From: Desulfomonilia bacterium
Lineage (GTDB): Bacteria > Desulfobacterota > Desulfomonilia > UBA1062
Assembly: GCA_963664325.2 (NCBI GenBank)
Contig: CAXXDQ010000004.1
Coordinates: forward strand, 832,001 to 896,000
Length of the DNA: 64,000 nt
Reading direction: 5' to 3'
Shown: positions 49,371-64,000 of the stretch, in pieces
Layout of the letters: each line of letters begins with the position of its first letter
How positions within the stretch are numbered: the stretch's first letter is position 1
Translations under genes and position numbers: made by a program
Notes under the pieces: model-generated
What the model was told of the DNA's origin: nothing
Seen by the model: only the letters and a program-made list of their open reading frames with translations
Database searches by the model: none

Positions 49371-50528
49371 ATGAAAAGAAGAATCCTGAAAACCTCTTTA
49401 ACGGTTCTGATTGGATTACTGTTATCGGGATTTTTATTTTCTAATGATGACAGCAGTTCGAGAAAAACTGTCGGTGTGATATTACCTCTGAGCGGCAAGT
49501 TCAGGCCCATTGGATTAAAAATGCTTAAGGGTGTTGAGCTGGCATCCAATGTATATACCAATGAAGGTACACAAAAAATAGAATTTATAATCCGTGATTA
49601 TGGAAGTGACGATTCAAGGCTTGGCGATATAATTGAAGATATGGATCGAAACAATAACATGATCGCGGTTATGGGGCCTATGGGTACGCAGGCGTGCAGG
49701 ACTGCCTTGAAAAAAGGGATACCGACATTTATCTATTCCAAGGAAAATCTGGCACCAAGGGAAAACTCGTGCTGCTATGGAAATTATCTCACAATCGGGA
49801 CTCAGGCCAGCACCCTTTTAAGGACGGCCAGAAATCAGGGGATAAAGCGCTTTGCCCTGCTTAGTCCCGCAGATGCATTCGGCAGAACTTTCAGGGATGT
49901 TTTCATAAAAACAGCGCCTCAGTATGATATAGAGATTATATTTTCACAGGAATACAAGGATGATACAAAGGATTTTTCAGGCGTTGTGAAGATTTTCAAG
50001 GATACGATCAGGAAACAGAAAAGGCCTGCAAAGCAGAAGACCGTCAACAAACAAATCCCGCCTGTTGAAGCGGTTATGATACCTGACACGGCAATAAATG
50101 CATCTACGATCGCCGCTTATTTTCCTTATAACGGCATTAAAGATATTAAGCTTTTCGGGACCGACCTCTGGGACACACCGGATTTTATAAGACTTGGCGG
50201 AAAGAATATTGAAGGGGCCTTTTTCGTCAGCGGATTCTACGCCGACAGTTCATCTTTAAGGGTTAGAGATTTTGTTTCTTCCTTCAGGACTACATTTGAT
50301 TCATTGCCGACGATATGGGAAGCAAGTGCCTATGATACGGCCTGCATAATCAGGCAAATGATAGGAAAAGGTTATGATTCGAGGAGCGAACTCAATGAGG
50401 CTGTCTCATCCTTAAAAGACTACCAGGGAGTAACAGGTATAATATCGTTTTATAATGACGGATCTACCCTTAAAGAGATAACCGTTCTCACGGTAAGGGA
50501 CGGAAATATAACAGAGGTAATACAGTGA
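49371..50528 (+). CDS. Periplasmic-binding-fold protein (LpoA/LppC-like)
   Basis: GVILPLSG, AYD, GVTG type I PBP motifs; upstream of bamD. Confidence 0.75.
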   Translation: MKRRILKTSLTVLIGLLLSGFLFSNDDSSSRKTVGVILPLSGKFRPIGLKMLKGVELASNVYTNEGTQKIEFIIRDYGSDDSRLGDIIEDMDRNNNMIAVMGPMGTQACRTALKKGIPTFIYSKENLAPRENSCCYGNYLTIGTQASTLLRTARNQGIKRFALLSPADAFGRTFRDVFIKTAPQYDIEIIFSQEYKDDTKDFSGVVKIFKDTIRKQKRPAKQKTVNKQIPPVEAVMIPDTAINASTIAAYFPYNGIKDIKLFGTDLWDTPDFIRLGGKNIEGAFFVSGFYADSSSLRVRDFVSSFRTTFDSLPTIWEASAYDTACIIRQMIGKGYDSRSELNEAVSSLKDYQGVTGIISFYNDGSTLKEITVLTVRDGNITEVIQ

Positions 50529-51190
50529 ATAGAGCAATGCAGTACAATCTTGTTTGTTATTCGGGTATGATGTTACTTGTTTTTTTTATCGTCTCGGGAT
50601 GTGCTCATACCCCTGACAAGGAACTCCCTGTCGATGTCCTGTATAAACAGGCTCAGGATTTTGCAAAGGGAGGCAGGGTTGAAAAGGCATCAGAGGCTTA
50701 TATGAAAGTCAGGACATTCTATCCTGGAAACGACCTTGCGAAACAGTCTCTGCTGGAACTCTCCGACCTTTATTATAAAAATGAAGAGTATGTTTCCGCC
50801 TTGAACAGCTATCAGGAGTTCAGGATGCTTTATCCTACTGATGCGAAATCCGAATACTGCATGTTCAGGTCGGCAATGTGCCATTTCAGGCAGATATTGA
50901 CCATAGACAGGGACCAGTCAGAGACAATCAAATCAATTAAATCTTTTGAAGATTTCCTTCGCATGTACCCCAACTCGACTTATGCGAGTGAGGCTAATGA
51001 AGACCTTAAGAAATCAAAAACAGTACTGGCAAAAAACGGGATATATATCGGGAAATTCTATATGAAGAAAAAGAAATGGCATGAAGCTGCTTGCAAGAGA
51101 TTTAATGAGGTGAAGAAAGGCTTTCCTGGTCTAGGCCTGGATGAGGAGCTTGATAAACTTATTGAGCAGTCCTGCGGTGCTAAGAAGTAG
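50525..51190 (+). CDS. bamD: Outer membrane assembly lipoprotein BamD
   Basis: Lipobox VSGC, TPR repeats, DRDQ, YPNS.Y. Confidence 0.88.
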   Translation: MNRAMQYNLVCYSGMMLLVFFIVSGCAHTPDKELPVDVLYKQAQDFAKGGRVEKASEAYMKVRTFYPGNDLAKQSLLELSDLYYKNEEYVSALNSYQEFRMLYPTDAKSEYCMFRSAMCHFRQILTIDRDQSETIKSIKSFEDFLRMYPNSTYASEANEDLKKSKTVLAKNGIYIGKFYMKKKKWHEAACKRFNEVKKGFPGLGLDEELDKLIEQSCGAKK

Positions 51191-53046
51191 GGCAGAGTTT
51201 CCTGTTGTCTCCCACTCTTAAGGTCAGCCTTATCCTGTCAAGGTATTCCATATAGGGTATTGCATATTTTCGGCTGACCCCGGTAATCATTTTCATATCT
51301 GTCGGATTCATGGTGCCTTTCTCTTTCAGGAATGCCCTTATCTTGTCTTTAAGGTGAGCCTCATTTTCATCAGTGAGGAAAATATCATCCTTGATCCTGA
51401 ACAACCTGCCTTCCCTGACCATAAACGAAAGAATTCCAGTGAGCTTCTTCATATCAACCCCCAGCTTTTCCGAAATTTCCGCAGGGCCGGGAGGTTCAAG
51501 GCCGGCTTTGTTGAGAAGCATGTATATGCTCGTTGTGGTATCTTTATCATTTCCGAGGGACGCGTTGAAATCTTTCATCCTGATATTCGGTCCATCCTCG
51601 ATAACAGCCTGGTTTTTTATCATATCGGTCAGGGCTTTATGGAATAGTTTGGAATTGGCTTTTGCCTTGATGGAGGATCTGAGATGTTCCTTTGATATTC
51701 CCGGTGATGATGGATTTGCTTCGTGATAACCTGCAACGGAACTGGAAATTATATTTTTCAGCACGGCCAGATGTCTGGAACTCACATATGTATCATTCTG
51801 GGTATCAAATCTTACAATCTCATTTCTTGTCTGAAGTTCCTGCAGGAGCTTTTCAATTGCTTGAGAGTTGTCAGCCAGGTGTGCCTGAAGAGTATTTTTG
51901 GATATACCCGACAGGCCCGAATCCGAAACAAGACCAGGGATTACCCTTGATAGATTGCCGCTCATAAGCTCAACTGCAATTTCGGCTGAAAATCTTCTTA
52001 ACGGATACGGGTTTATGACCTTCCCTCCCCCTAATGTTGCACCCGGGGAAATGCTTCTGATAATAAATCTGTTGCCTACGGATGCAATAACTGGATCTTT
52101 CAGCCTGATGCGTGCAACTGTCTTATCTCCGGAACTGTACAGGTTCATATTGCCGTCGACCTCGGCAGTACCTGTATAGAACCTTATTCCTCCTTTACCG
52201 GGCTGTTTTATGAGCCTGAGCTCGGCATCGATAACTCGTGTTGGCTTGAAAATGCCTGCTGGAACAAGCCATTGTCCCCTGGCAATTTCCTCCCGGTCTA
52301 TCCCCTGCAGGTTTATTGCCGTTCTCATGCCTGCGGCAGCAGTTTCCACACTCTCGGAATGTATCTGTATGCTCCTTATTTTTGCCTTGATGCCTGAAGG
52401 CAGTATCTCCACATCCTGACCTTCTGCAAAGGTGCCTTTGGCCAGTGTCCCGGTTACAACCGTTCCAAAACCTTTAATGGTGAACACCCTGTCAATCGGA
52501 AGAAATGCAATGCCTGAATTGTTTCTTTCCTTTGCCTCAAGCACTTCTTTTTCAAGTACTTGAAGCAGTCTGTCGAGTCCGAAACCGGTAACGGAGCTTA
52601 CAGGAATGACCGGCGTATCCTTTAGGAAAGTGCCTTCGAGGAATGATTTGACATCTGAAACGGCTAGATCAAGAAGGTCTTCGTCGACCATGTCGGTTTT
52701 AGTAAGTGCAACGACTCCCTTTTCAATCCCCAGGAGTTCGCATATCTGGACATGTTCGACAGTCTGGGGCATGACCCCTTCATCGGCTGCGACAATCAAT
52801 ATTACAAGGTCAATACCGGAGGCACCAGAAAGCATATGGCGTATGAATTTGACATGCCCCGGGACATCGACAACGCCGACTCTTTCCCCTGACGGCAGGG
52901 ACCAGGGAGGCGAATCCCAGCTCAATTGTCAGCCCTCTTTCCTTCTCCTCCTTGAGCCTGTCGCAGTCAATTCCTGTCAGAGCTTTAATGAGTGACGTCT
53001 TTCCGTGGTCGACATGACCGGCAGTTCCGATTACTATTCGTTTCAT
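51180..53046 (-). CDS. selB: Selenocysteine-specific elongation factor, +1 frameshift near 52902
   Basis: [26 protein letters not shown]-terminal SRKYAIP..EYLD. Confidence 0.95.
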
Positions 53047-53173
53047 TCTTTAACGGATATACCTTCTGAAAGCGGGTTCGTCAATTGAGCCTTTCTTGCC
53101 TCCGGTCTCAATAGATTCATTATTCAGAGGGAAAATGCCGTTAACAGAAACAGGAAAACCAGGAGGTTTTATT

Positions 53174-53785
53174 ATGTCCAGGATATCTGTTGCATTACTT
53201 TTGACATTGATCTTTTCAACCCTCGGATATGCCGCCGAGGCGGACACGTTCAGGAATCCATGCGCCGGCATCAGCATAACAAAACCGGCGGAATGGTATT
53301 ATATGAGCATCGATCAGAATTATGAAAATCTGAAGAATTCAAAGATGAAGGATGAAGATTTGAAAAAGATGTCTCTGAAATTGGCCGATGTGCCGATGAT
53401 TGTCATCATGAAATATCCGGAACCTTATAAAAACCTGAATCCGACATTGAAAATCGATGTGAAACCGGCGGGAGACTACAAGGGAACAGATCCCAGAAAG
53501 ATTCTATCGGCAATGACCGCTTCCATGGGAGAATTTTTTGATGGTTTTAAGATCATAAAAGGACCGGCTGAAACCAAACTTGATGGAATGGCCGGGGCCT
53601 ATATCCGTTTCAATACAATCATGAAAATGGAGAGCGGACAGTCATACCCGTCATGTTCTGAAATATGGATAATCCCGCGCGGCGATCACATGTTCATGTT
53701 CAGTGCAAACACGAGGCAGGATGAGAAGAACTGCAAGAGAGATGAAATACGAAAGATCATAGATACAATAAAGATTGAAAAATAG
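53174..53785 (+). CDS. Hypothetical exported protein
   Basis: AGGAGG SD and signal peptide; no motif recognised. Confidence 0.7.
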   Translation: MSRISVALLLTLIFSTLGYAAEADTFRNPCAGISITKPAEWYYMSIDQNYENLKNSKMKDEDLKKMSLKLADVPMIVIMKYPEPYKNLNPTLKIDVKPAGDYKGTDPRKILSAMTASMGEFFDGFKIIKGPAETKLDGMAGAYIRFNTIMKMESGQSYPSCSEIWIIPRGDHMFMFSANTRQDEKNCKRDEIRKIIDTIKIEK

Positions 53786-53816
53786 AAAATGGACGGGAAA
53801 TTTTCCCGTCCATTTT
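53786..53816. terminator. Bidirectional terminator
   Basis: AAAATGGACGGGAAA-T-TTTCCCGTCCATTTT. Confidence 0.88.
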
Positions 53817-53821
53817 AAGGG

Positions 53822-54906
53822 TTATGAATGACTTTTTTCAAATTTGACCATGAAATCTGCAAGTTTCTGTGCACCCTCCACCGGCAGGGCATTATACATG
53901 GAGGCCCTTATCCCGCCGACCGAACGGTGTCCCTTGAGACCGATAAGCTTTAGCTTGCCTGCCTCGGCAAGAAATTCCGTTTCAAGGTCTTCAGTGGGAA
54001 GTCTGAATGGTATATTCATTTTCGATCTGGAATTCTTCTGGACAGTTCCCTTGTAGAATGAGCTGTTGTCGATTACGTCATAAACAATAGCCGCCTTTTT
54101 GTTGTCGATTTTTTCCATTTCTGTCAGTCCGCCCAGGCCTATGATCCAGTTCATGACTTCATGGATCACGAAAATGCCGATGCACGGCGGTGTATTGTAG
54201 AGAGAGTTGTTTTCAGCATGAATCTTGTAGTCCAGCATTGTGGGAATACTTTCCGGCGCCTTGCCGATAAGATCTTCCCTTATTATAACCAGGGTTACTC
54301 CGGCGGGGCCTGCATTTTTCTGGGCGCCTGCGTAAATGAGTCCGAAATCGGATACGTTGATCTTTCTGGACAGTATATCTGATGACATGTCGCAGACCTT
54401 GGGGACGCTTCCGGTATCAGGGAAACTCTGCCACTGGGAGCCGTAGATGGTATTATTTGATGTGAGATGGCAGTAGGCAGCATCCTTTGTAAGCTTGAGC
54501 TCTGACAGCTCTGGAATTCTGACATATTTTTCTTCTTTGTTGAAGCTGCTATATTGACCCTGCCGACTTTTTTTGCTTCCTTGATTGCCTTTGAAGACCA
54601 GCTACCGGTATCGATGTAGTCGGCAACCTGGCCTTCTCCCAACAAATTAAGGGGTACCATGGAAAATTGCAGGCTTGCTCCACCCTGTAAAAACAAGACT
54701 TTGTAATTATCAGGTATGCCCAGGACTTTTTTAACAAGATCGATTGTTTCATTTAGAAGTGATTCGAATTGTTTTGAGCGGTGGCTTACCTCCATTATAG
54801 ACATGCCTGTGCCTGCAAAATTGATAACAGCCTTGCTTGTAGTCTCCAAAACCGGTTCAGGAAGAACCGCCGGGCCCGCATTAAAAATATAAACGTCTCT
54901 ACTCAT
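53822..54906 (-). CDS. serC: Phosphoserine aminotransferase, single -1 frameshift near 54537
   Basis: FNAGPA, SHRS, QGGAS, DMSS, AGAQKN.GPAG, GHRSVGG.RAS. Confidence 0.95.
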
Positions 54907-55097
54907 AATATTCACCTCCTGCATTATTGTTAAAGGTTTTATATACCCAAAGAAACGCTAAATATAAAGACGAAAAAGAATTAAATAGAATCAGTAAGAT
55001 AAATGCCGTACTTGACGGATTTGCATTAAGCTGGCAACCTCTGTCCTAGAATATTTTTCAATCCTTGCATCTGTTTTAATATCCTGGAGGTATAGAT

Positions 55098-56210
55098 ATG
55101 AACAGAAAAGCTGTGATAATAGTTATATCAGTCATAGCGGCAATTATTGTTATAGTGCTCATCGGATACCTGCTTAAGGAAAAACCTGCTGCCCAAAAGG
55201 GGCTTCTCCCGGTGGTTAAAGAAAAGGCTGTCAAGTTGACTGAACCCCAGGTTGCAATTTCCGAAGAAGACCAGAAGGCAATGGGAATAAAAAAAACCGA
55301 GATCAGCAGGGTCAGTTTCAGGAAGACGGTAAAGATTCAAGGGAAGATCGATTATGACAGTGCAAACATCTCCGAAGTGGAAACCAATATAAAGGGAGTT
55401 GTGGAATCAGTTGCCGCCGAAGAGGGCAAATATGTTAAAAAAGGTGATCTGCTGGTTGAAATAAACAGCCCCGAAATCCTGGCGGCGCAGCAGGATTTGA
55501 TTGCTGCGACAAGGTCCGGCGCCACATCAGGGGGGGATGAATCCTCTGCAGCGGCAGCAGAGACTGCAAGGAAAAAGCTCAGGCAGATGGGTATACGTGA
55601 TGATATTATAAGCCAGATTGAAAAAACAGGGACATATTCAAAGACTGTTAAGATCATGAGTCCGGTTACCGGATATATAGTAAAGAATTTTGTCAGTAAG
55701 GGAAGCCCGATTGCCGACGGCAACAAGCTGATTCAAATCGTAGATTTAAATTCAGTAATATTTACCGGTGAAGTGAATGATCAGGATGCTCCTCTTGTCA
55801 AACAGGGAGAGGAAGCAGAGATACTCATTGATGCCTATCCCGATAAGATATTCAAGACAAAGACCGAGGGCGTTATTCCTTCAGGCGTTGTTGGTAATCC
55901 TTCGATAGTGAAGATGCGTATTGCCAATGCTGATAACGGCCTGAAACCTGGAATGCAGGGTGCTGTTGAGATCAAAATCGATCTGGGGGCCAGGCTTGCC
56001 GTTCCAATGGAGGCAATAATCGACAAGGACGGCCGCAAGATAGCCTATGTCGAAACGGGTGAGGGAAAATTTGCTGCAAGGACAATCAGGACAGGTATCA
56101 ATTTTGAATCTCAAGTAGAGGTTATTGAAGGATTGAAGGAAGGTGAACTGGTTGTCTCATCCGGCCTGACCAAAGTTGATTCAGAGGCTGAACGCCAAAG
56201 ACAGCGCTGA
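55098..56210 (+). CDS. RND efflux periplasmic adaptor (CusB-like)
   Basis: N-terminal TM, V.KGD.L...SPE, SPVTG, LKPGM, GL.EGE.VV. Confidence 0.88.
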   Translation: MNRKAVIIVISVIAAIIVIVLIGYLLKEKPAAQKGLLPVVKEKAVKLTEPQVAISEEDQKAMGIKKTEISRVSFRKTVKIQGKIDYDSANISEVETNIKGVVESVAAEEGKYVKKGDLLVEINSPEILAAQQDLIAATRSGATSGGDESSAAAAETARKKLRQMGIRDDIISQIEKTGTYSKTVKIMSPVTGYIVKNFVSKGSPIADGNKLIQIVDLNSVIFTGEVNDQDAPLVKQGEEAEILIDAYPDKIFKTKTEGVIPSGVVGNPSIVKMRIANADNGLKPGMQGAVEIKIDLGARLAVPMEAIIDKDGRKIAYVETGEGKFAARTIRTGINFESQVEVIEGLKEGELVVSSGLTKVDSEAERQRQR

Positions 56211-56225
56211 TTGCAGGAAAAATCA

Positions 56226-56837
56226 ATGCACAGGAAACAGCTTTATGCCAGGGCATACCTGCTGGCTGTTTTCACAATCGTGTATAATATTATCGAAGGG
56301 ATTTTTTCCGTTGGTTTCGGGCTTGCTGACGAGACTTTTTCTCTGTTCGGTTTCGGGCTGGATTCCTTTGTTGAGGTTATGTCCGGAGTGGGCGTCTGGC
56401 ATATGATAAGGCGGATAATGGCGTCCGGAGATGAAAGCCCGGACACGTTTGAGCGCAGTTCTTTGAAAATTACAGGCGTGTCATTTTACATTCTCAGTGC
56501 AGGCCTTTGCTTTACCGGAATATACGGCTTTTTCGTGAGCCATAAACCTGAAACAACATTTTGGGGCATTGTCATTTCACTGGTTTCGATTTCAGCAATG
56601 TGGGTCCTTGCAAGCATGAAAATAGGAACCGGCAAGGCTCTGGGATCAGAAGCCATCCTTGCAGATGCGGAATGTACCAGGACATGCCTTATCCTGTCGG
56701 TGGTGCTTCTTGGAGCGAGCCTTGGTTATGAACTGACAGGCATTGGAAGAATAGACAGCCTCGGGGCTGTTATTATTGCCGTTTTGGCATTCAGGGAAGG
56801 GAAAGAGGCTTTTGAAAAAGCAAGGGGACGCTCTTGA
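56226..56837 (+). CDS. CDF-like cation transporter (TM domain only); may extend to 56873 via Sec
   Basis: YNIIEG, FGLDSFVE, AILAD, DS; several TM helices. Confidence 0.85.
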   Translation: MHRKQLYARAYLLAVFTIVYNIIEGIFSVGFGLADETFSLFGFGLDSFVEVMSGVGVWHMIRRIMASGDESPDTFERSSLKITGVSFYILSAGLCFTGIYGFFVSHKPETTFWGIVISLVSISAMWVLASMKIGTGKALGSEAILADAECTRTCLILSVVLLGASLGYELTGIGRIDSLGAVIIAVLAFREGKEAFEKARGRS

Positions 56838-56847
56838 AACGATTCAT

Positions 56848-56864
56848 GTCGCCGGTCCGGCAGC
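56848..56864 (+). promoter_or_regulatory. Putative bacterial SECIS element
   Basis: GTCGCCGGTCCGGCAGC hairpin with GGTC apex 17 nt after the in-frame TGA at 56835-56837. Confidence 0.55.
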
Positions 56865-57031
56865 TCTCATTGACAATCAGCCATGAAAACGTCTTTTGGG
56901 AGCCTTCATGATTTTATTCTATATTTTGCCAATTGAATGCCTAGGATATATTCTCAATTCATCGTGGCCTTTTGACACGGGCCCTTCTATGGTATATTGA
57001 AAGTATAACTTAACACTCTAAAGAGGGAATC

Positions 57032-57718
57032 TTGGGAACTAAAATCAGCGATATTTCAAAAAAGAGCGGAGTAGCCGCTTCGACAATACGCTATTATGTG
57101 AGGGAAGGACTGTTGCCTGAACCTGAAAGAAAGAACAGGAATATGTCCTACTATGACGAAGCCTGCATAGAAAGAATAAAGACGGTCAGGCATTTTCAGG
57201 AAAAGAAGTTTTATCCCCTTACCGTTATCAGAAATATCATGAGAAGAATGGACGATGGGATGAGCGCTGTTGAGGCCGAGGCCATTGAACATGCCGTTTT
57301 CGGGGAAGGTGCAGATACCGTTGCAGGCAGGTCTGAATTTCTCAAGAAAACAGGTCTTACCGAGGAAGAGCTGAAAGCGGCAGAAAGCGCCGGCCTGCTT
57401 ATGCCGTTTGTACAGGAAGGTAAGAAACGCTTGTACGATGCCGACGACATCAGATTCGGCGGCATAATAAAAAGGATGCGTGAATTTGGAATAGATATGG
57501 ACAGCCTGAGTTTCTATGTCGAAATTGGCAATGCTCTCATGGAACGGGAGATGGCCTTGAGGAAGGATGTCGTCAGGGGCAGATCAAAAGAGGAAAACAT
57601 CCGTATAACTTCGGAAATCACCAGGGCTGCCGACACCATAAGGGGGTATGTCCTGAAAAGGCTCTTCCAGCGCACGGTTGAAGATAATATCAGGAAGAGC
57701 CTGTTAAAGAAAAAATAA
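57032..57718 (+). CDS. MerR-family regulator with a second degenerate HTH
   Basis: ISDISKKSGV..STIRYYVREGLLP...YY; TTG start. Confidence 0.88.
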   Translation: MGTKISDISKKSGVAASTIRYYVREGLLPEPERKNRNMSYYDEACIERIKTVRHFQEKKFYPLTVIRNIMRRMDDGMSAVEAEAIEHAVFGEGADTVAGRSEFLKKTGLTEEELKAAESAGLLMPFVQEGKKRLYDADDIRFGGIIKRMREFGIDMDSLSFYVEIGNALMEREMALRKDVVRGRSKEENIRITSEITRAADTIRGYVLKRLFQRTVEDNIRKSLLKKK

Positions 57719-57719
57719 A

Positions 57720-59717
57720 TCAGCCCAAATTCCTGGCGGCAAAAAACCCTTCCCTGATTGCGTCTATGGCCTTTCGCGGTTTTTTTGCATCTCCCGCCGG
57801 AATTACATGTATTTTTTTATCGAGCTTTGAGGCGAGACTGTTTTCGCTCAGTGTTCCAGCTGCAATAACAACCGTATCGCAGTTGATAAACTCCTGTATG
57901 CCTCCCTTTTCGACAATTATGCCGTCAGGCAGTATCCTGGCCGCTTTGGTATCGGTCATGGTCTCGACGCCATAGCGTTTCAAGAGCTGGAGTTCCACCC
58001 ATCTCGTTGATATGCCTATATCAGCTCCGAGTCTCGGGAGCATTTCAATAAGCCGGACTCTTTTTATCCCCGTTGTCGCAGCCTGGCGTAAAACTTCGAC
58101 ATCTTCAGCGTTGTTCAGGAAAAGAAAAGCCAATGTGTCATTGTCTATGGTGCCCTTCTTGGCAAGGTATACGGCAGTTTCAATTCCCACGGCGCCGCCT
58201 CCGATAACAACTATGTCCTTTCCCGTATCTGTGTTGCCTGAGAGCACATCCCATGCCATTACCACGTTCCCGTTTTCCAAGCCAGGTATCGGCGGGATAA
58301 GAGGCTTGCCGCCGCAGGCTATGATCACCGTTTCCGGATTTTCCGCTGCAACGGTTTCGGGATCTATTTCAGTAGATGTCCTAATATCGCATCCTGCATT
58401 TCTGGCCTGTCCCGCCATGACCTCTGCCAGCCTGATGAAGTCCCTTCTCTCCTCAAGCGCCCCTGCGATTTTCAGCTGACCGCCCAATTCCCCTGACTTT
58501 TCATAAAGGATAACTTTGTGTCCGCATAAAGCAGCCTCTTTTGCAGCAGCAAGTCCGGCCGGTCCACCCCCTGCAATGACGACCTTTTTGGGCGTTGCTG
58601 TTTTCATTGAAAGGGGCAGCTCTTTTTCCCTTCCCGCCCTGGGGTTGACCATGCATTCAATAGGCTTCAGTGAAAATACATGGTCCAGGCATCCCTGATT
58701 GCACCCTATGCACGGGGTGATGTCGCCAAATCTTCCTTTAAATGCCTTTGCCGGCATGAAAGGGTCGGCTATCAGGCCCCTGGCAAAACCTATGAGGTCT
58801 GCGGAACCTCTGGATAGGATCTCTTCTGCAAGGCCAACTCTCGTTATCCTGTTGCAGGCAATCACCGGTCTGGTTACCGCGCTTTTTATTCCCTGCGCCA
58901 GATAGGCATATGCTCCGGGGGGCACTTCCATTGGTATCTGCGGCACTCTTGTCTCATGCCATCCGCCGGTTACATTAAAGGCGTCCGCGCCCGCTTTCTC
59001 GAGTTCTGCGGCAAAGATCCTCGACTCTTTGTTCGTATGGCTGCCCGGGATAAAATCATTTCCGGCGATCCTGAATATCACAGGATATTCTTTCCCCACC
59101 GAATCTCGGACGGCCCTGGCAACCTCTAGACCGAAACGCATACGGCTGTTTATATCTCCTCCATACCCGTCCTTTCTGAAATTGGTAACAGGTGATAGAA
59201 ACTGGGAGATTATATAGCCTGCGGAAGCTATTATTTCGACTGCATCAAATCCTGCAGCCTTTGTCCTGGCGGCGGCGGCAGCGTAGTTATCTATTGTTCG
59301 CTTAATATCATTGATGCCCATCTCGCGCGGAACTTCCTTTGTCAGTCTTGATGCTACCGGAGAAGGCGCTATCGATTCCCTGCCTATAAGCGGTGAAAAG
59401 GCATACCTGCCTGCATGATAAAGCTGGGCCGCTATGCGGCAGCCGTTTATCCTGACGGCACCTGTTAGATTTTTGAGCCCCGGGATGAACTTGTCATGGC
59501 TCAGGCCAATAAGTTCACTGCCGCCGCTGTATTCGTCAATGCTGCAGCCGCCCACAATAATCAGCCCTGCGCCTCCTTCGGCACGCTCGGAATAAAACGC
59601 CGTCAACCTGCCGGTGACATATCCGTCAGGTGTGTACATCAGGTGCATTGCAGGCATCACTATCCTGTTTTTCAGGTCCATGCCGCCGATTTTTATTGGC
59701 GAAAACAGTTTGGACAT
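57720..59717 (-). CDS. fadH: NADH:flavin oxidoreductase, 2,4-dienoyl-CoA reductase-like
   Basis: LKNRIVMPAMH, QFLSP..N.R.D.YGG, GWHE, CIGCNQGC, GGGPAG. Confidence 0.88.
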   Translation of the reverse strand: MSKLFSPIKIGGMDLKNRIVMPAMHLMYTPDGYVTGRLTAFYSERAEGGAGLIIVGGCSIDEYSGGSELIGLSHDKFIPGLKNLTGAVRINGCRIAAQLYHAGRYAFSPLIGRESIAPSPVASRLTKEVPREMGINDIKRTIDNYAAAAARTKAAGFDAVEIIASAGYIISQFLSPVTNFRKDGYGGDINSRMRFGLEVARAVRDSVGKEYPVIFRIAGNDFIPGSHTNKESRIFAAELEKAGADAFNVTGGWHETRVPQIPMEVPPGAYAYLAQGIKSAVTRPVIACNRITRVGLAEEILSRGSADLIGFARGLIADPFMPAKAFKGRFGDITPCIGCNQGCLDHVFSLKPIECMVNPRAGREKELPLSMKTATPKKVVIAGGGPAGLAAAKEAALCGHKVILYEKSGELGGQLKIAGALEERRDFIRLAEVMAGQARNAGCDIRTSTEIDPETVAAENPETVIIACGGKPLIPPIPGLENGNVVMAWDVLSGNTDTGKDIVVIGGGAVGIETAVYLAKKGTIDNDTLAFLFLNNAEDVEVLRQAATTGIKRVRLIEMLPRLGADIGISTRWVELQLLKRYGVETMTDTKAARILPDGIIVEKGGIQEFINCDTVVIAAGTLSENSLASKLDKKIHVIPAGDAKKPRKAIDAIREGFFAARNLG

Positions 59718-59749
59718 ATCCACCTCCATATCCGGTTTTCTGATAATTA

Positions 59750-59774
59750 AAGTTTAAAGAATAACTTTAAACTT
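59750..59774. promoter_or_regulatory. Palindromic operator overlapping the fadH promoter
   Basis: AAGTTTAAAG-N5-CTTTAAACTT perfect; adjacent minus-strand TTGACA-N17-TATTAA. Confidence 0.75.
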
Positions 59775-59942
59775 AATAGCAATAAGCTTGTTAAGTGTCA
59801 AGTTGTTAATATTGAAATCCTGTTTGGACCGATTCGAAATCATTTACTCTTATCAGGGAAATTTATTACACCTCCTGATAGAAAGAATGTTCCATAATGT
59901 ATAGGCAATATTATTAAGTTATGTTAAAATAGAAGGTTGAGA

Positions 59943-59959
59943 TTGGCATAAAAATTGAA
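59943..59959 (+). promoter_or_regulatory. Possible sigma54 promoter
   Basis: TTGGCATAAAAATTGAA (GG-N10-GA; non-canonical -12). Confidence 0.4.
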
Positions 59960-60020
59960 GATAATGTTTAAATGATTTCATACTTGGATTTCGAATATTA
60001 ATAAAAAAGGGGATCTGCAT

Positions 60021-62351
60021 ATGAGGAAAAAACTTCTATCGGATGCTGTTCGAAGGAATTCGGCCGCTTATGCTTTTGTTTTGATAATATTGTCGATGGT
60101 TTTGGTTGCCGGTTGCAGCAGCGGTACGTCCAATGATGACGGCCCGATGCCCGGGGAAGCAAATAACGAAAGCGGCCTGGAATCCGGAACGGATAAGAGC
60201 ATATATGATTTCGCCAACAGCTGCTTTACGGTTTTATCTCAGAAGAGCGGCAGCTATATAAGCGTGACAGGATCTATGTATTCGTTTTCAACGAGTGATG
60301 TGACCAAAGCAGAGCCCTTTTTCATGAAGCCGTCTGACCTGGGCGTATATATGTTTCAGGACAGCAGGGGCCGGTATCTCGATTCCTCCTTCGGTGATAC
60401 AGTAATCAGCTATCCTGTGCCAAGGGTGAGTTCCGAATGGGAAATAGAAAGGATTGAAAGCGGTATTTTTGCAGTCAAGTCACACAGTGCGCAGAAATGG
60501 CTCAGTGCAGGAGAGGCTGGAAAACTCATGCTTTCAGAGGTGATGGATTCTTCCTGCCGTTTCCTGATCGAGCCGGGCAAGGGATGCAGCACCTTCCCCG
60601 AATCGGAAGTGGATGCCGATGTTCAGATACCCGGCACCCCTGTCGGAGAAAAGATTGTGGGCTTTGCCGATCCCCATGTTCATATGACAGGTAACGAGGG
60701 TTTCGGCGGGAAGGTAGTCTGGGGGAAGATGTTCCACCCTCTCGGTATAACTAAGGCCCTGCCGGACTGTGCGGAACTGCACGGGAAAAACGGCAGCAAG
60801 GATATAATCGAATCTGTGGCAAACGGAACGACAGGGCATGACACAAGCGGGTGGCCGGATTTCAAATACTGGCCGGGCCCCGACTCACCGACGCATCAGA
60901 TGGTTTATTACAAATGGCTTGAACGGTCATGGACAGGGGGTTTGAGGCTGATGGTAAATCTCGCGGTCAACAATGAAGTGTTATGCAAGATTGCCGGTCA
61001 GATGCCGGGCTACACATGCGACGATATGAGCACGGTCGACAGGCAGCTTGTCCACATCAAGCAGATGGAGAGATATATAGATGCGCAGTGCGGCGGGCCG
61101 GGCAAGGGCTGGTTCAGGATAGTCTACTCACCCGAAGAGGCCAGGGAGGTGATCAGCAGAGGCAAGCTCGCTGTAATACTGGGTATAGAAGTCGCCACCA
61201 TATTTGACATCCGCACCGACATTGATGAAATAAAATCGGAAACAACAAGGAAGGCTGAAATTCAGAAAGCTGAGGACATAATCACTTCTCAACTCGACAA
61301 GTATTACAGCCTTGGAGTAAGGAGCATCTTCCCGATACATGGATTCAACAACGCTTTCGGCGGTACAGCGATGTTTGTCCCCGGGATATACAACCTCGGG
61401 AACAGGATAAGAAACGGCGAGTATTTCAAGCCGTGCGAATGCCCTACTTCTGAGGAATATCCCGGCCTGCTTTCACCCACCGAGGTTTTCACGTACAAGG
61501 AGCTGTCCATCACATATCCTGAAGGGTCCAACCCGTTCGTTGTGGCACTGTTCAACCTGCTGGGAATCGCACTCCCAGTTTACCCCGAATATCCCGAGGG
61601 AAAGGCATACTGCAACTCAAGAGGGCTTACCGAACTTGGTGCGTTCTTCATAAAAGAGATGATTAAAAGGAAAATGATAATAGAGATCGATCACATGAGC
61701 TTCAGGATGTTAAACGGCTATGTTGATGACAAAGTGCACGACGGGGTGCTCAAAATTGCGGAGGACAATGACTACCCGATCGTCTCCAGCCATGCCGCTG
61801 TCGTAGAAGGCAAGGGTGACGAGGCCAGCAAGTCGATTGATGAGATCAGGCGTATACACAGGCTCGGTGGGATTGTGGCCCCGATACTGATACAGGGTGA
61901 TGAAAGAATTCAAAATCAATACATAGACGGCCCGTATTGCAAGATATCATCGAGGAACTGGGCTAATGTATATAAATATATATGCAATGTAATCGAAGAA
62001 GACGGGGATTTTGCTGGTGTTCCCCTGAGCACGGATGTCAACGGATTCGCTACGGAGCCTTCACCCCGTTTTGGTGAAAAGGCATGCTCCGGCACCGGGG
62101 AGCAGATGAACGAGGCGCCGAAGGTCTCTTATCCTTTTGCGCCTTATGCCGGAACAGGAATTATCGATCATCTGAGAACCGGGAACAGAGTTTTCGACAT
62201 AAACTATGACGGTCTGGCAAATTACGGCCTGATACCCGATTTCATACAGGAGGTCAGGAGTGTAGGCCTTACCGATGACGACCTTAAACCCCTTTTCAAT
62301 TCCGCGGAGGCTTACATACGCATGTGGGAGAAGATCGAAAGCAGGCCGTAA
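60021..62351 (+). CDS. Lipoprotein amidohydrolase (membrane dipeptidase / sphingolipid ceramide N-deacylase-like)
   Basis: Lipobox VAGC, GFADPHVH, LGIE, IDHMS, SSH, STDVNG; beta-rich N-terminal domain. Confidence 0.75.
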   Translation: MRKKLLSDAVRRNSAAYAFVLIILSMVLVAGCSSGTSNDDGPMPGEANNESGLESGTDKSIYDFANSCFTVLSQKSGSYISVTGSMYSFSTSDVTKAEPFFMKPSDLGVYMFQDSRGRYLDSSFGDTVISYPVPRVSSEWEIERIESGIFAVKSHSAQKWLSAGEAGKLMLSEVMDSSCRFLIEPGKGCSTFPESEVDADVQIPGTPVGEKIVGFADPHVHMTGNEGFGGKVVWGKMFHPLGITKALPDCAELHGKNGSKDIIESVANGTTGHDTSGWPDFKYWPGPDSPTHQMVYYKWLERSWTGGLRLMVNLAVNNEVLCKIAGQMPGYTCDDMSTVDRQLVHIKQMERYIDAQCGGPGKGWFRIVYSPEEAREVISRGKLAVILGIEVATIFDIRTDIDEIKSETTRKAEIQKAEDIITSQLDKYYSLGVRSIFPIHGFNNAFGGTAMFVPGIYNLGNRIRNGEYFKPCECPTSEEYPGLLSPTEVFTYKELSITYPEGSNPFVVALFNLLGIALPVYPEYPEGKAYCNSRGLTELGAFFIKEMIKRKMIIEIDHMSFRMLNGYVDDKVHDGVLKIAEDNDYPIVSSHAAVVEGKGDEASKSIDEIRRIHRLGGIVAPILIQGDERIQNQYIDGPYCKISSRNWANVYKYICNVIEEDGDFAGVPLSTDVNGFATEPSPRFGEKACSGTGEQMNEAPKVSYPFAPYAGTGIIDHLRTGNRVFDINYDGLANYGLIPDFIQEVRSVGLTDDDLKPLFNSAEAYIRMWEKIESRP

Positions 62352-62384
62352 CAGTATCAGGTCCTTGATAACAGGCAGGACTTT

Positions 62385-62418
62385 AAAACAGGCTGACCAT
62401 AATGGTTGGCCTGTTTTT
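62385..62418 (+). terminator. Rho-independent terminator
   Basis: AAAACAGGCTGACCA-TAA-TGGTTGGCCTGTTTTT. Confidence 0.85.
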
Positions 62419-62535
62419 ATTTCCGGATATCCTGTCAGTTAATAAATATTTTCATATTCAATAGATGCTTGCTTCTTTTATAACATGGTAGTATCAGGTT
62501 TACTTCATATCATTTGGAGGGGGTATTGAAGTATC

Positions 62536-63672
62536 ATGGGAAGAGACTCTATTGAGATCAGGGCAATAGCCTCTTCGAATACAAAACAGGCAGATGATTT
62601 TATCGCCCTGCCTTTTTCCATTTATAAAGACAACGACTGCTGGGTTCCCTGGTTCAACAATGATATGAAGCAATTCATAGACAGGAAACACCCGGTATTT
62701 GAGCATACTGATGGTGAATTTCTGGTTGCATACAAGAACGGTGCTCCTGCAGGCAGGATATTTGTTTTTGAAAACGGCGGATACAACAGTACACACAACA
62801 AAAACAGCGCATACTTTTTTTTCTGCGATTTCATCAATGACCAGGAAGTCGTTGACTCATTCATGGAAGAAGCCGTCAATTGGGCTAGGAAAAGAGGACT
62901 TGACAGCATAATAGGCCCGATAGGCTTTGGCGGTGTGTCTGGCTGCGGGTACCTTGTTCACGGATATGACAAACGTGCCGCCATGACCATGATGATGTAC
63001 AACCACGCTTATTATAATAAGCTGATCGAGGCTTTCGGCTTTTCAAAATATCTGGACAACTATTCCTATATCCTGCCTACATCAGCAGAACTGCCCCAGG
63101 CCATAAAAGACGCATCCGACAAGCTTTTGAGCAAGGGCGGGTTCAGCATCCTGCAGGCGAAAAGCAAAAAGGAGCTCGCCAGATGGGCGCCTTCGATAGT
63201 AGACGTATTCATCAAAACCCTGAGCGATCATGCAGGGAATTACAAACTTACGCCCAAAGAAATCGATTGCGTCGTCAAATCGCTCATGACAGTCGCACGG
63301 CCTGAACTCATAAAGGTCGTACTGCACAGCGAAAAAGTGGTGGGCTTCCTGCTGGGGTTCTATGATCTGTCAAAAGCCATTCAGAAGAGCAGGGGCCGTT
63401 TGAATCCGCTTTCAATAATCAGGCTTATCATGGAATATAATAAGACTGATGTGCTTTTGATAAACGGAATGGGCATATTGCCTGAATTTCAGGGTGTAGG
63501 AGCTAATATGCTTCTTTATTCGGAAATGGAAAAAACCATACGTGCACACCCGAAGTTCAAGCACCTTGAAATGGTCCAGATTCAGGAAGTGACGGCAAAA
63601 ATGCTGAGCAATGTAAATACGCTCAGAGGTGAAATAGCAAAGATTCACAGGATGTACGAATACAGACTCTAA
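62536..63672 (+). CDS. Tandem-GNAT protein, YghO / bacterial ceramide synthase-like
   Basis: FI.LP..IY....WVP, HP.F, GRI, W...RG...I.GP, G.LV.G, YN..YY..L.E..GF.K. Confidence 0.72.
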   Translation: MGRDSIEIRAIASSNTKQADDFIALPFSIYKDNDCWVPWFNNDMKQFIDRKHPVFEHTDGEFLVAYKNGAPAGRIFVFENGGYNSTHNKNSAYFFFCDFINDQEVVDSFMEEAVNWARKRGLDSIIGPIGFGGVSGCGYLVHGYDKRAAMTMMMYNHAYYNKLIEAFGFSKYLDNYSYILPTSAELPQAIKDASDKLLSKGGFSILQAKSKKELARWAPSIVDVFIKTLSDHAGNYKLTPKEIDCVVKSLMTVARPELIKVVLHSEKVVGFLLGFYDLSKAIQKSRGRLNPLSIIRLIMEYNKTDVLLINGMGILPEFQGVGANMLLYSEMEKTIRAHPKFKHLEMVQIQEVTAKMLSNVNTLRGEIAKIHRMYEYRL

Positions 63673-63760
63673 GAAATATATAAATCTTCCGTAAACAAAA
63701 GATACACTGGAACTGCGTCTGCCCCTTGACTTCGATATTATGAACATATAGCCTGAAAAA

Positions 63761-64000
63761 ATGAGTGCAACAGCAGCTTTATTCGACATGGACCATACGC
63801 TGATCTGGGTGAATTCTGGACACTCCTCCATCGTGCTTGCAAAAAGACTGGGTCTGGTAAACTCAAGCCAGCTTCTAAAAGGGATATATAAAATACTGCT
63901 CTACAGGCTTGCCCTGCTTAATATAAACGAATGGTATGAAGCTAATATAAGCACGCTTAAAGGCCTCAGTATCGAAGATTTGGATTTTTTTGCCGGCCTC
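63761..64000 (+). CDS. HAD-IB family phosphatase, 3'-truncated by the window edge
   Basis: MSATAALFDMDHTLI (DxDxT motif). Confidence 0.8.
   Translation, partial: MSATAALFDMDHTLIWVNSGHSSIVLAKRLGLVNSSQLLKGIYKILLYRLALLNINEWYEANISTLKGLSIEDLDFFAGL

Follow-up and report, generated by a model that had tools for sequence, protein, structure and literature searches.

Whether the TGA at 56835-56837 ends the gene of a small membrane protein or is read as selenocysteine (Sec) was the question raised by a locus in a 64,000-nucleotide (nt) stretch of DNA from a Desulfomonilia bacterium. The whole stretch is called the window here and coordinates without a further label are positions in it; the window's own genome, of 4.3 Mb, was labelled G000. 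The gene was found to encode a putative metal exporter resembling the cation diffusion facilitators (CDF), and UGA 56835 probably encodes Sec, the protein then representing a new selenoprotein family. This reading was based on the presence of a Cys residue at the position of the TGA in most homologs, on a hairpin behind the TGA resembling the selenocysteine insertion sequence (SECIS) elements of the same genome, and on the Sec machinery of the organism.

The gene and its in-frame TGA

The conventional open reading frame (ORF) was found to run on the + strand from the ATG at 56226 to 56837 and to encode 203 residues with the C-terminus ...EKARGRS, followed by the stop TGA at 56835-56837, where conventional gene callers end the gene. 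An AGGAAA ribosome-binding-like motif was present 8 nt 5′ of the ATG. When the TGA was translated as U, the proposed full selenoprotein gene (56226..56873, +) was found to encode 215 residues, containing Sec204 at the candidate Sec codon (56835..56837, +) followed by the 11-codon tail NDSCRRSGSSH (56838..56870, +) and the true stop TGA at 56871-56873. The stop at 56835 and the continuation of the frame through the tail to the TGA at 56871 had been described in an earlier note, made from the sequence alone, and were reproduced by translation. Read-through of the first TGA gives U-N-D-S-C, i.e. a U-x-x-x-C tail.

Cysteine at the position of the TGA in homologs

A homolog search with the read-through protein gave 5712 relatives with E-values up to 0.001, and the best 120 of the 5712 were listed. 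Positions in the tail were counted from the Glu of the EGxE motif that is conserved behind the last helix, which places the TGA of the window at +13. The first tail Cys was found at +13, the exact spacing of the TGA, in 87 of the 120 listed homologs, and at +14 (nine homologs) or +15 (13 homologs) after a short insertion. The tail was present in 109 of the 120 listed proteins with the consensus ...EAFEKAxGxx-C-x-C-x-x-x-C, and each of these tails contained two to four Cys residues, which bears out the statement in the earlier note that homologs often end in a short Cys-rich tail at this position. The protein end was found at +13 in 11 of the 120, namely the window's own protein, P0003-P0011 and P0024. 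In a MAFFT alignment of 34 members, the Sec of the window was aligned with the first Cys of the CxCxxxC tail and Cys208 with the last conserved tail Cys.

The position was also compared at the DNA level in 170 other listed loci from metagenome contigs, species-representative genomes and the window's own family. It had been suggested that relatives would tell whether Cys or UGA aligns here, and a Cys codon was found in 166 of the 170 loci (165 by count, plus L143, which was mis-anchored by the pattern); two of the remaining four end at a contig edge and two are distant paralogs. Relatives from the metagenome scan were 57-68% identical among the matches listed, the closest relative in the scan of species-representative genomes was 70% identical, and the scan of viral contigs gave no relative of the transporter. 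The 52 genomes of the window's family that were searched contained the gene in eight cases, G000 included, and the TGA was found in G000 only. No read-through gene call was found among the 116 matches of a protein search with residues 160-216.

As set out in the available text of Zhang, Fomenko and Gladyshev (2005), a selenoprotein is recognised by an in-frame TGA, at least two Cys homologs and a TGA/Cys pair in more than 50% of homologs (PMC1088965). The proportions found here, with Cys in 109 of the 120 listed proteins and in 166 of the 170 other DNA loci, lie above that bound.

Two unusual tails were observed among the relatives. P0289, annotated by NCBI as a cation transporter of a Desulfobacterales metagenome-assembled genome, was found to contain Gly at the first tail Cys (G-S-C-R-D-C), unlike its closest relatives P0276 and P0278; either a real replacement of Cys by Gly or a TGA that a non-standard gene call translated as Gly could account for it. 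The tail of L084, from a metagenome contig, was found to be ...NQNNCC followed by a TGA and at least 27 more open codons. The TGA of L084 is probably an ordinary stop, because it is not aligned with a conserved Cys.

The hairpin after the TGA

A SECIS element is characterised, in the available text of the same study, as a stem-loop that directly follows the TGA and has a G in its small apical loop (PMC1088965). The hairpin GUCGCCG-GUC-CGGCAGC was found at 56848..56864 (+); its first base is the 11th past the TGA and its GGUC apex begins at +17, in agreement with the positions reported earlier. The apex regions of the two fdhA SECIS elements of G000, GUGGCCGGUCUGGCCGC (C7) and GUGGCCGGUCUGGCCAC (C3), were found to contain GGUC from +19 in both cases. 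The candidate hairpin shared 14 of 17 bases with the C7 apex and 13 of 17 with the C3 apex. The proposed likeness to the SECIS elements of this genome was upheld for the bases and the near-equal spacing; it did not extend to the fold, which is weaker and contains a C.A mismatch.

The 11-mer GCCGGTCYGGC was found nine times in the 4.3-Mb genome when both strands were counted, two occurrences being the fdhA SECIS elements and one the candidate. A hairpin was then defined as GGTC at +15..+23 capping a stem of six or more pairs with no more than one mismatch. Such a hairpin was found behind five of the 2441 frames of 150 codons or more that end in TGA, which were the two fdhA genes, the candidate and two apparent non-coding shadow frames. 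The background was 215 of 173,533 TGA triplets genome-wide (0.12%), two of 1753 TAA-ended frames and none of 986 TAG-ended frames.

Hairpins are common at the 3′ ends of mRNAs, and this one sits right after a stop codon. It could be a 3′-end element (terminator, attenuator or protein-binding site) unrelated to Sec, the protein ending at residue 203, which is judged very improbable. No T-run was found 3′ of the hairpin and a terminator scan of 54900-57200 called none on the + strand, so that the hairpin is not a terminator, and with -5.2 kcal/mol it would be a poor one. The 14/17 and 13/17 matches to the fdhA SECIS apices would also be left unexplained by a 3′-end element.

Sec decoding and the quality of the assembly

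The organism decodes Sec. G000 was found to contain tRNA-SeC (C2:100135-100231), an intact selA, a selD with one in-frame TGA (C3:477478-478392) and two fdhA genes, each with one in-frame TGA at HCARL-U-HS (C7:185923-187188 and C3:1011624-1012895). The gene of the Sec-specific elongation factor, selB, was found in the window at 51180..53046 (-) with the Pfam domains GTP_EFTU, SelB-wing_2/3 and Beta-barrel_SelB. The nearby selB had been pointed out in the earlier note and the capacity of the organism to decode Sec had been predicted from it, and both statements held.

The selB gene is split in the window by one extra base at 52898, which is absent from the contigs of runs X1 and X3, and the X1 contig contains an extra T behind 54535 in serC. 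With these indels corrected, selB was found to be a single frame of 621 residues and serC a single frame of 367 residues. The breaks in selB and serC are assembly indels, because the run contigs differ there and the correction restores single frames. Since the assembly carries indel errors, other apparent pseudogenes in G000 need the same check.

Two 1-base indel errors within 4 kb of the gene could suggest that the TGA is itself an assembly or sequencing error for TGT or TGC. The X1 contig was found to contain no substitutions over 52700-57000, and none were found in the X3 pieces listed over 56521-57000; X1 and X3 are of the same sample, possibly the source of the window, and represent an independent assembly, not an independent sample. 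The letters of the TGA, the tail and the hairpin are real and not a base-call error, because they are identical in the contigs of two runs. Sixteen other proteins from three sources, described below, also stop at the same residue, and a sequence error is regarded as barely credible.

Relatives with about 85% nucleotide identity over 56732-56875 were observed in the wetland metagenome run X4. One X4 contig, with a depth of 9.6, was found to match the window to 56353, followed by four other letters, the stretch 56833-56887 and a renewed match from 56961. It may come from a relative with an internal gene deletion in which 55 bases around the TGA and the hairpin were kept at 80% identity or more.

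Proteins of the same length and the reading of the TGA as a stop

Sixteen other proteins from ENA, JGI and Logan (P0003-P0011, P0024 and P0376-P0381) were found to end exactly at the residue before the first tail Cys. Those measured (P0003-P0011 and P0024) were 66-82% identical to the protein of the window. P0376-P0381 are six further members of the 90% clusters of these ten same-length proteins, containing the same C-terminal residue and varying in length at the N-terminus only. A quick IQ-TREE tree of protein cores took in the window's protein, P0003-P0011 and P0024, and all of these were found on one side of a branch with a support of 99 in the Shimodaira-Hasegawa-like approximate likelihood ratio test (SH-aLRT). 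A clade of this kind would be the expected look of a Sec clade after conventional gene calling.

The alternative is that the TGA is a genuine stop, arisen when an ancestral TGY codon of the first tail Cys changed to TGA; the protein would then manage with its 203-residue core, and the frame, Cys208 and the hairpin would be a decaying remnant or chance. This is considered unlikely, and the points that favour it and weigh against Sec are as follows. If an ancestor had acquired a single nonsense mutation and lost a tail that it could spare, the clade would be accounted for equally well; one event would suffice, because all same-length proteins fall in one clade. Relatives without a tail exist, as five of the 25 representatives with a pattern-readable C-terminus did not contain a Cys tail. 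The TGA was found in none of the 166 readable other DNA loci, and one TGA-bearing DNA sequence alone ranks as a 'candidate' only in the available text of the criterion study (PMC1088965). An 11-codon open frame is given by chance more often than not, and the tail after U retains one of the two further Cys residues (U-N-D-S-C compared with C-x-C-x-x-x-C), the middle Cys being lost.

The remaining points concern the hairpin. It is weak, the 17-mer having -5.2 kcal/mol compared with -9.7 and -10.1 kcal/mol for the fdhA apices, and it contains an uncompensated C.A mismatch at stem position 3, where fdhA contains a G-C pair. The 71-nt region was not more stable than its shuffled versions (z = +1.17), 178 of the 200 shuffles being at least as stable. 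The criteria for the genome-wide count were fixed after the candidate and the fdhA elements had been seen, the idea of a GGUC apex being a prior claim of the earlier note. No Rfam SECIS model matched the candidate at E up to 10, whereas SECIS_3 (RF01989) matched both fdhA elements (E 4e-8 and 6e-7, below the gathering score). The Rfam negative carries little weight, because the selD SECIS (GGU loop at +21), which is certainly real, was also missed by all Rfam models at E up to 1.

A genuine stop would leave unexplained why an fdhA-SECIS-like GGUC hairpin, with a background of about 0.1%, is found at the right distance, as no such hairpin is to be expected in a dead 3′ region. The codon is moreover TGA and not TAA or TAG in the single DNA read, and the organism contains at least three TGA-bearing selenoprotein genes. 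The reading of UGA 56835 as a Sec codon is preferred, and is held to be probable.

Protein family, fold and predicted transport site

The protein was found at the edge of the known CDF models, below the curated cutoffs (Pfam Cation_efflux PF01545, 25.7 bits with a cutoff of 26.6; TIGR01297, 29.3 with a cutoff of 82.35), and the precomputed Pfam column gives PF01545 for most homologs. An AlphaFold2 model based on the 34-row alignment contained six long helices, with a predicted local distance difference test score (pLDDT) of 87 and a predicted template modelling score (pTM) of 0.83, and residues 204-216 were disordered (pLDDT <50). The best matches of the Protein Data Bank (PDB) in Foldseek were YiiP (TMq 0.70, E 4e-5) and the human ZnT transporters (ZnT1/3/4/7/8). 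No cytoplasmic C-terminal domain of the ZT_dimer type was found, the protein ending 12-25 residues past transmembrane helix 6 (TM6), and no second Pfam domain was present. The scores at the family edge, the six-helix model and the YiiP and ZnT fold matches agree with the first description of the protein as a TM-only CDF-like transporter.

The alignment of the family profile with E. coli YiiP was colinear with a weak E-value of 0.012. The family-invariant D46 and E50 of the TM2 motif D-x-x-x-E were found on D45 and D49 of YiiP, and the invariant C150 and C154 of TM5 on H153 and D157. The TM5 motif CTRTC contained two invariant Cys residues family-wide, and D46, E50, C150 and C154 are encoded at about 56361-56690. 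D45, D49, H153 and D157 form the transport site of YiiP (site A). The predicted transport site Asp46/Glu50/Cys150/Cys154 resembles a CDF site in thiolate form. As modelled, the family appears to be a TM-only CDF-like transporter with a thiolate-containing predicted site and a Cys-rich cytoplasmic tail, and these two features would argue for a thiophilic metal. No description of a two-Cys CDF-type site was found, though no literature search was aimed at it.

Locus context and distribution

A CusB/HlyD-type periplasmic adaptor (55098..56210, +) was found directly upstream of the transporter, with a gap of 15 nt to the transporter ATG, and the two genes are probably co-transcribed. The adaptor matched PF16576 with E 3.4e-45, as expected from the CusB-like adaptor named in the earlier note, and TIGR01730 RND_mfp with 113.9 bits, above the cutoff of 94.9; the CusB model gave 105.5 bits, below its cutoff. 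The flanks of the 167 other transporter loci contained no relative of this adaptor, the pairing being peculiar to the locus of the window, and no RND, ABC or MFS pump was found near the adaptor and transporter within 50000-64000.

Downstream of the transporter, a MerR-family regulator was found at 57032-57718, with FtsR as its best model (72.9 bits, below its cutoff). A MerR-like neighbour recurred in none of the 167 other loci. The MerR-like protein was considered as a metal sensor of the operon, which it probably is not, as it scored best on FtsR and not on CueR, MerR or ZntR. It was accordingly left out of the proposed system.

An ArsR/ACR3 pair was found to flank the transporter in one of 171 loci. 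A PHP-domain gene was observed directly 3′ of the Cys-form transporter in 25 of the 171 loci, in a Nitrospirota-rich subgroup (e.g. L016, L028-L030, L102, L107 and L123), and this link looks like lineage synteny. The neighbours were found to differ from locus to locus, and the context gives no clue to the metal.

The eight of 52 family genomes with the transporter gene, G000 included, did not include any of the three same-genus genomes G001-G003 (93-97% complete). Because of this patchy distribution, the gene behaves as an accessory or transferred gene.

Proposed mechanism

According to the mechanism proposed, SelB with its tRNA-Sec would bind the GGUC-apex hairpin, which starts 10 nt behind UGA 56835, and so recode this UGA to Sec. 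The product would be a 215-residue inner-membrane metal exporter containing the six-helix CDF fold without a cytoplasmic domain, in which Sec204 would stand in place of the first Cys of the cytoplasmic CxCxxxC tail and form a U-x-x-x-C pair with Cys208. The tail may capture a thiophilic metal ion in the cytoplasm, followed by its transfer to the Asp46/Glu50/Cys150/Cys154 site, and the U-x-x-x-C pair may bind a soft metal more tightly, or exchange it faster, than C-x-C. Candidate metals would be Zn/Cd, Cu(I)/Ag(I), Hg or Pb, and the exported metal might be passed to the adaptor in the periplasm. Ribosomes stopping at the UGA would nonetheless produce the 203-residue transporter core, and both products may be made.

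A wider reading, to which slightly less than even credence is given, would be that a clade of at least 17 CDF-like exporters uses a C-terminal Sec as a soft-metal ligand and represents the first Sec branch of the CDF superfamily. The pairing with the adaptor in the window would suggest an assembly of an adaptor and a CDF-like pump without RND, ABC or MFS components, and the family would work by a CDF mechanism with a thiolate (Asp/Glu/Cys/Cys) site. At least 17 database entries, the window's included, can be flagged as probably truncated by gene callers. The family is large and uncharacterised, the 5712 homologs of the one search (E up to 0.001) being named only 'cation transporter', and the Cys pair in place of His/Asp together with the CxCxxxC tail gives a testable prediction of thiophilic-metal selectivity.

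Comparison with known systems

The Sec transporters named in the available text of a 2026 review of prokaryotic selenoproteins were MerT-like proteins, E1-E2 ATPases (UxxC), YeeE/YedE, SaoX/SaoB/SaoP/SaoC and the SO_0444 Cu/Zn efflux proteins (UxC); 'CDF' was absent from that text and 'cation' was used for the ATPase only (PMC13188914). The available text of a 2022 review agrees with this list (PMC9312934). SO_0444 and the MerT relatives were, in the accessible part of the report of Haft and Gwadz, the only transporter families that they could previously validate as selenoproteins (bioRxiv 10.1101/2022.07.06.499078). No CDF-type selenoprotein was found in the available portions of the literature searched (PMC13188914, PMC12013277, PMC13326102, PMC9312934, PMC1088965 and bioRxiv 10.1101/2022.07.06.499078). 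Such a transporter was also absent from the main texts of BSepDB and deep-Sep, the supplementary family lists of which lie outside the search and could contain the family. The absence of a CDF-like family from the selenoprotein lists in the available text of the two reviews and in these main texts is in line with the statement of the earlier note that the family is not an established selenoprotein family.

The MerT-like and E1-E2 ATPase selenoproteins (UxxC/CxxU) resemble the protein of the window in being predicted metal transporters that contain Sec in a metal-binding Cys pair, as far as the available text of the reviews describes them (PMC13188914, PMC9312934). Both families are unrelated to the window's protein. 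The UxxC of the E1-E2 ATPases sits in the heavy-metal-binding domain and not in a C-terminal tail.

YiiP/FieF, CzcD and the ZnT proteins (PF01545, TIGR01297) share with the window's protein the six-helix TM fold and the colinear alignment of TM2 and TM5. The window's protein differs from these CDFs in the absence of the cytoplasmic domain, in its length of 203-215 residues compared with about 300, in its scores below the curated cutoffs, and in the presence of two Cys residues at the predicted site instead of His/Asp together with a Cys- or Sec-rich tail.

The candidate hairpin resembles the fdhA/fdhF-type SECIS elements (RF01989 SECIS_3; the E. coli fdhF mini-SECIS) in its fixed distance after the UGA and its GGUC apex. 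Compared with the fdhA SECIS, its GGUC lies 2 nt nearer to the UGA, its stem is about 4.5-5 kcal/mol weaker and contains the C.A mismatch, and no match to RF01989 was found. The E. coli SECIS element contains a bulged U, which has no clear counterpart in the candidate hairpin.

The closest analogue is the SO_0444 family (NF033936), described in the accessible part of the report as a family of heavy-metal efflux membrane proteins, some members of which carry Sec at the first Cys position of a C-S-C-type metal-binding motif, the CSC of these permeases being occasionally USC and most members containing Cys; the Sec forms occur in some anaerobic Deltaproteobacteria-like lineages (bioRxiv 10.1101/2022.07.06.499078). 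Neither the window's protein nor the Cys homolog P0012 matched NF033936 (E up to 0.01). The SO_0444 proteins belong to a different family and fold, related to ArsP-type permeases in the same text (bioRxiv 10.1101/2022.07.06.499078), whereas the motif of the window's protein is contained in the disordered C-terminal tail of a CDF-like protein. The replacement of a metal-binding Cys of a transporter by Sec is already known among bacterial selenoproteins, and a CDF-like case would probably be undescribed. If it were confirmed, the few kinds of transporter known to contain Sec would be joined by a metal transporter with the CDF fold, and the view of Sec as a metal ligand, and not as a redox catalyst only, would be supported.

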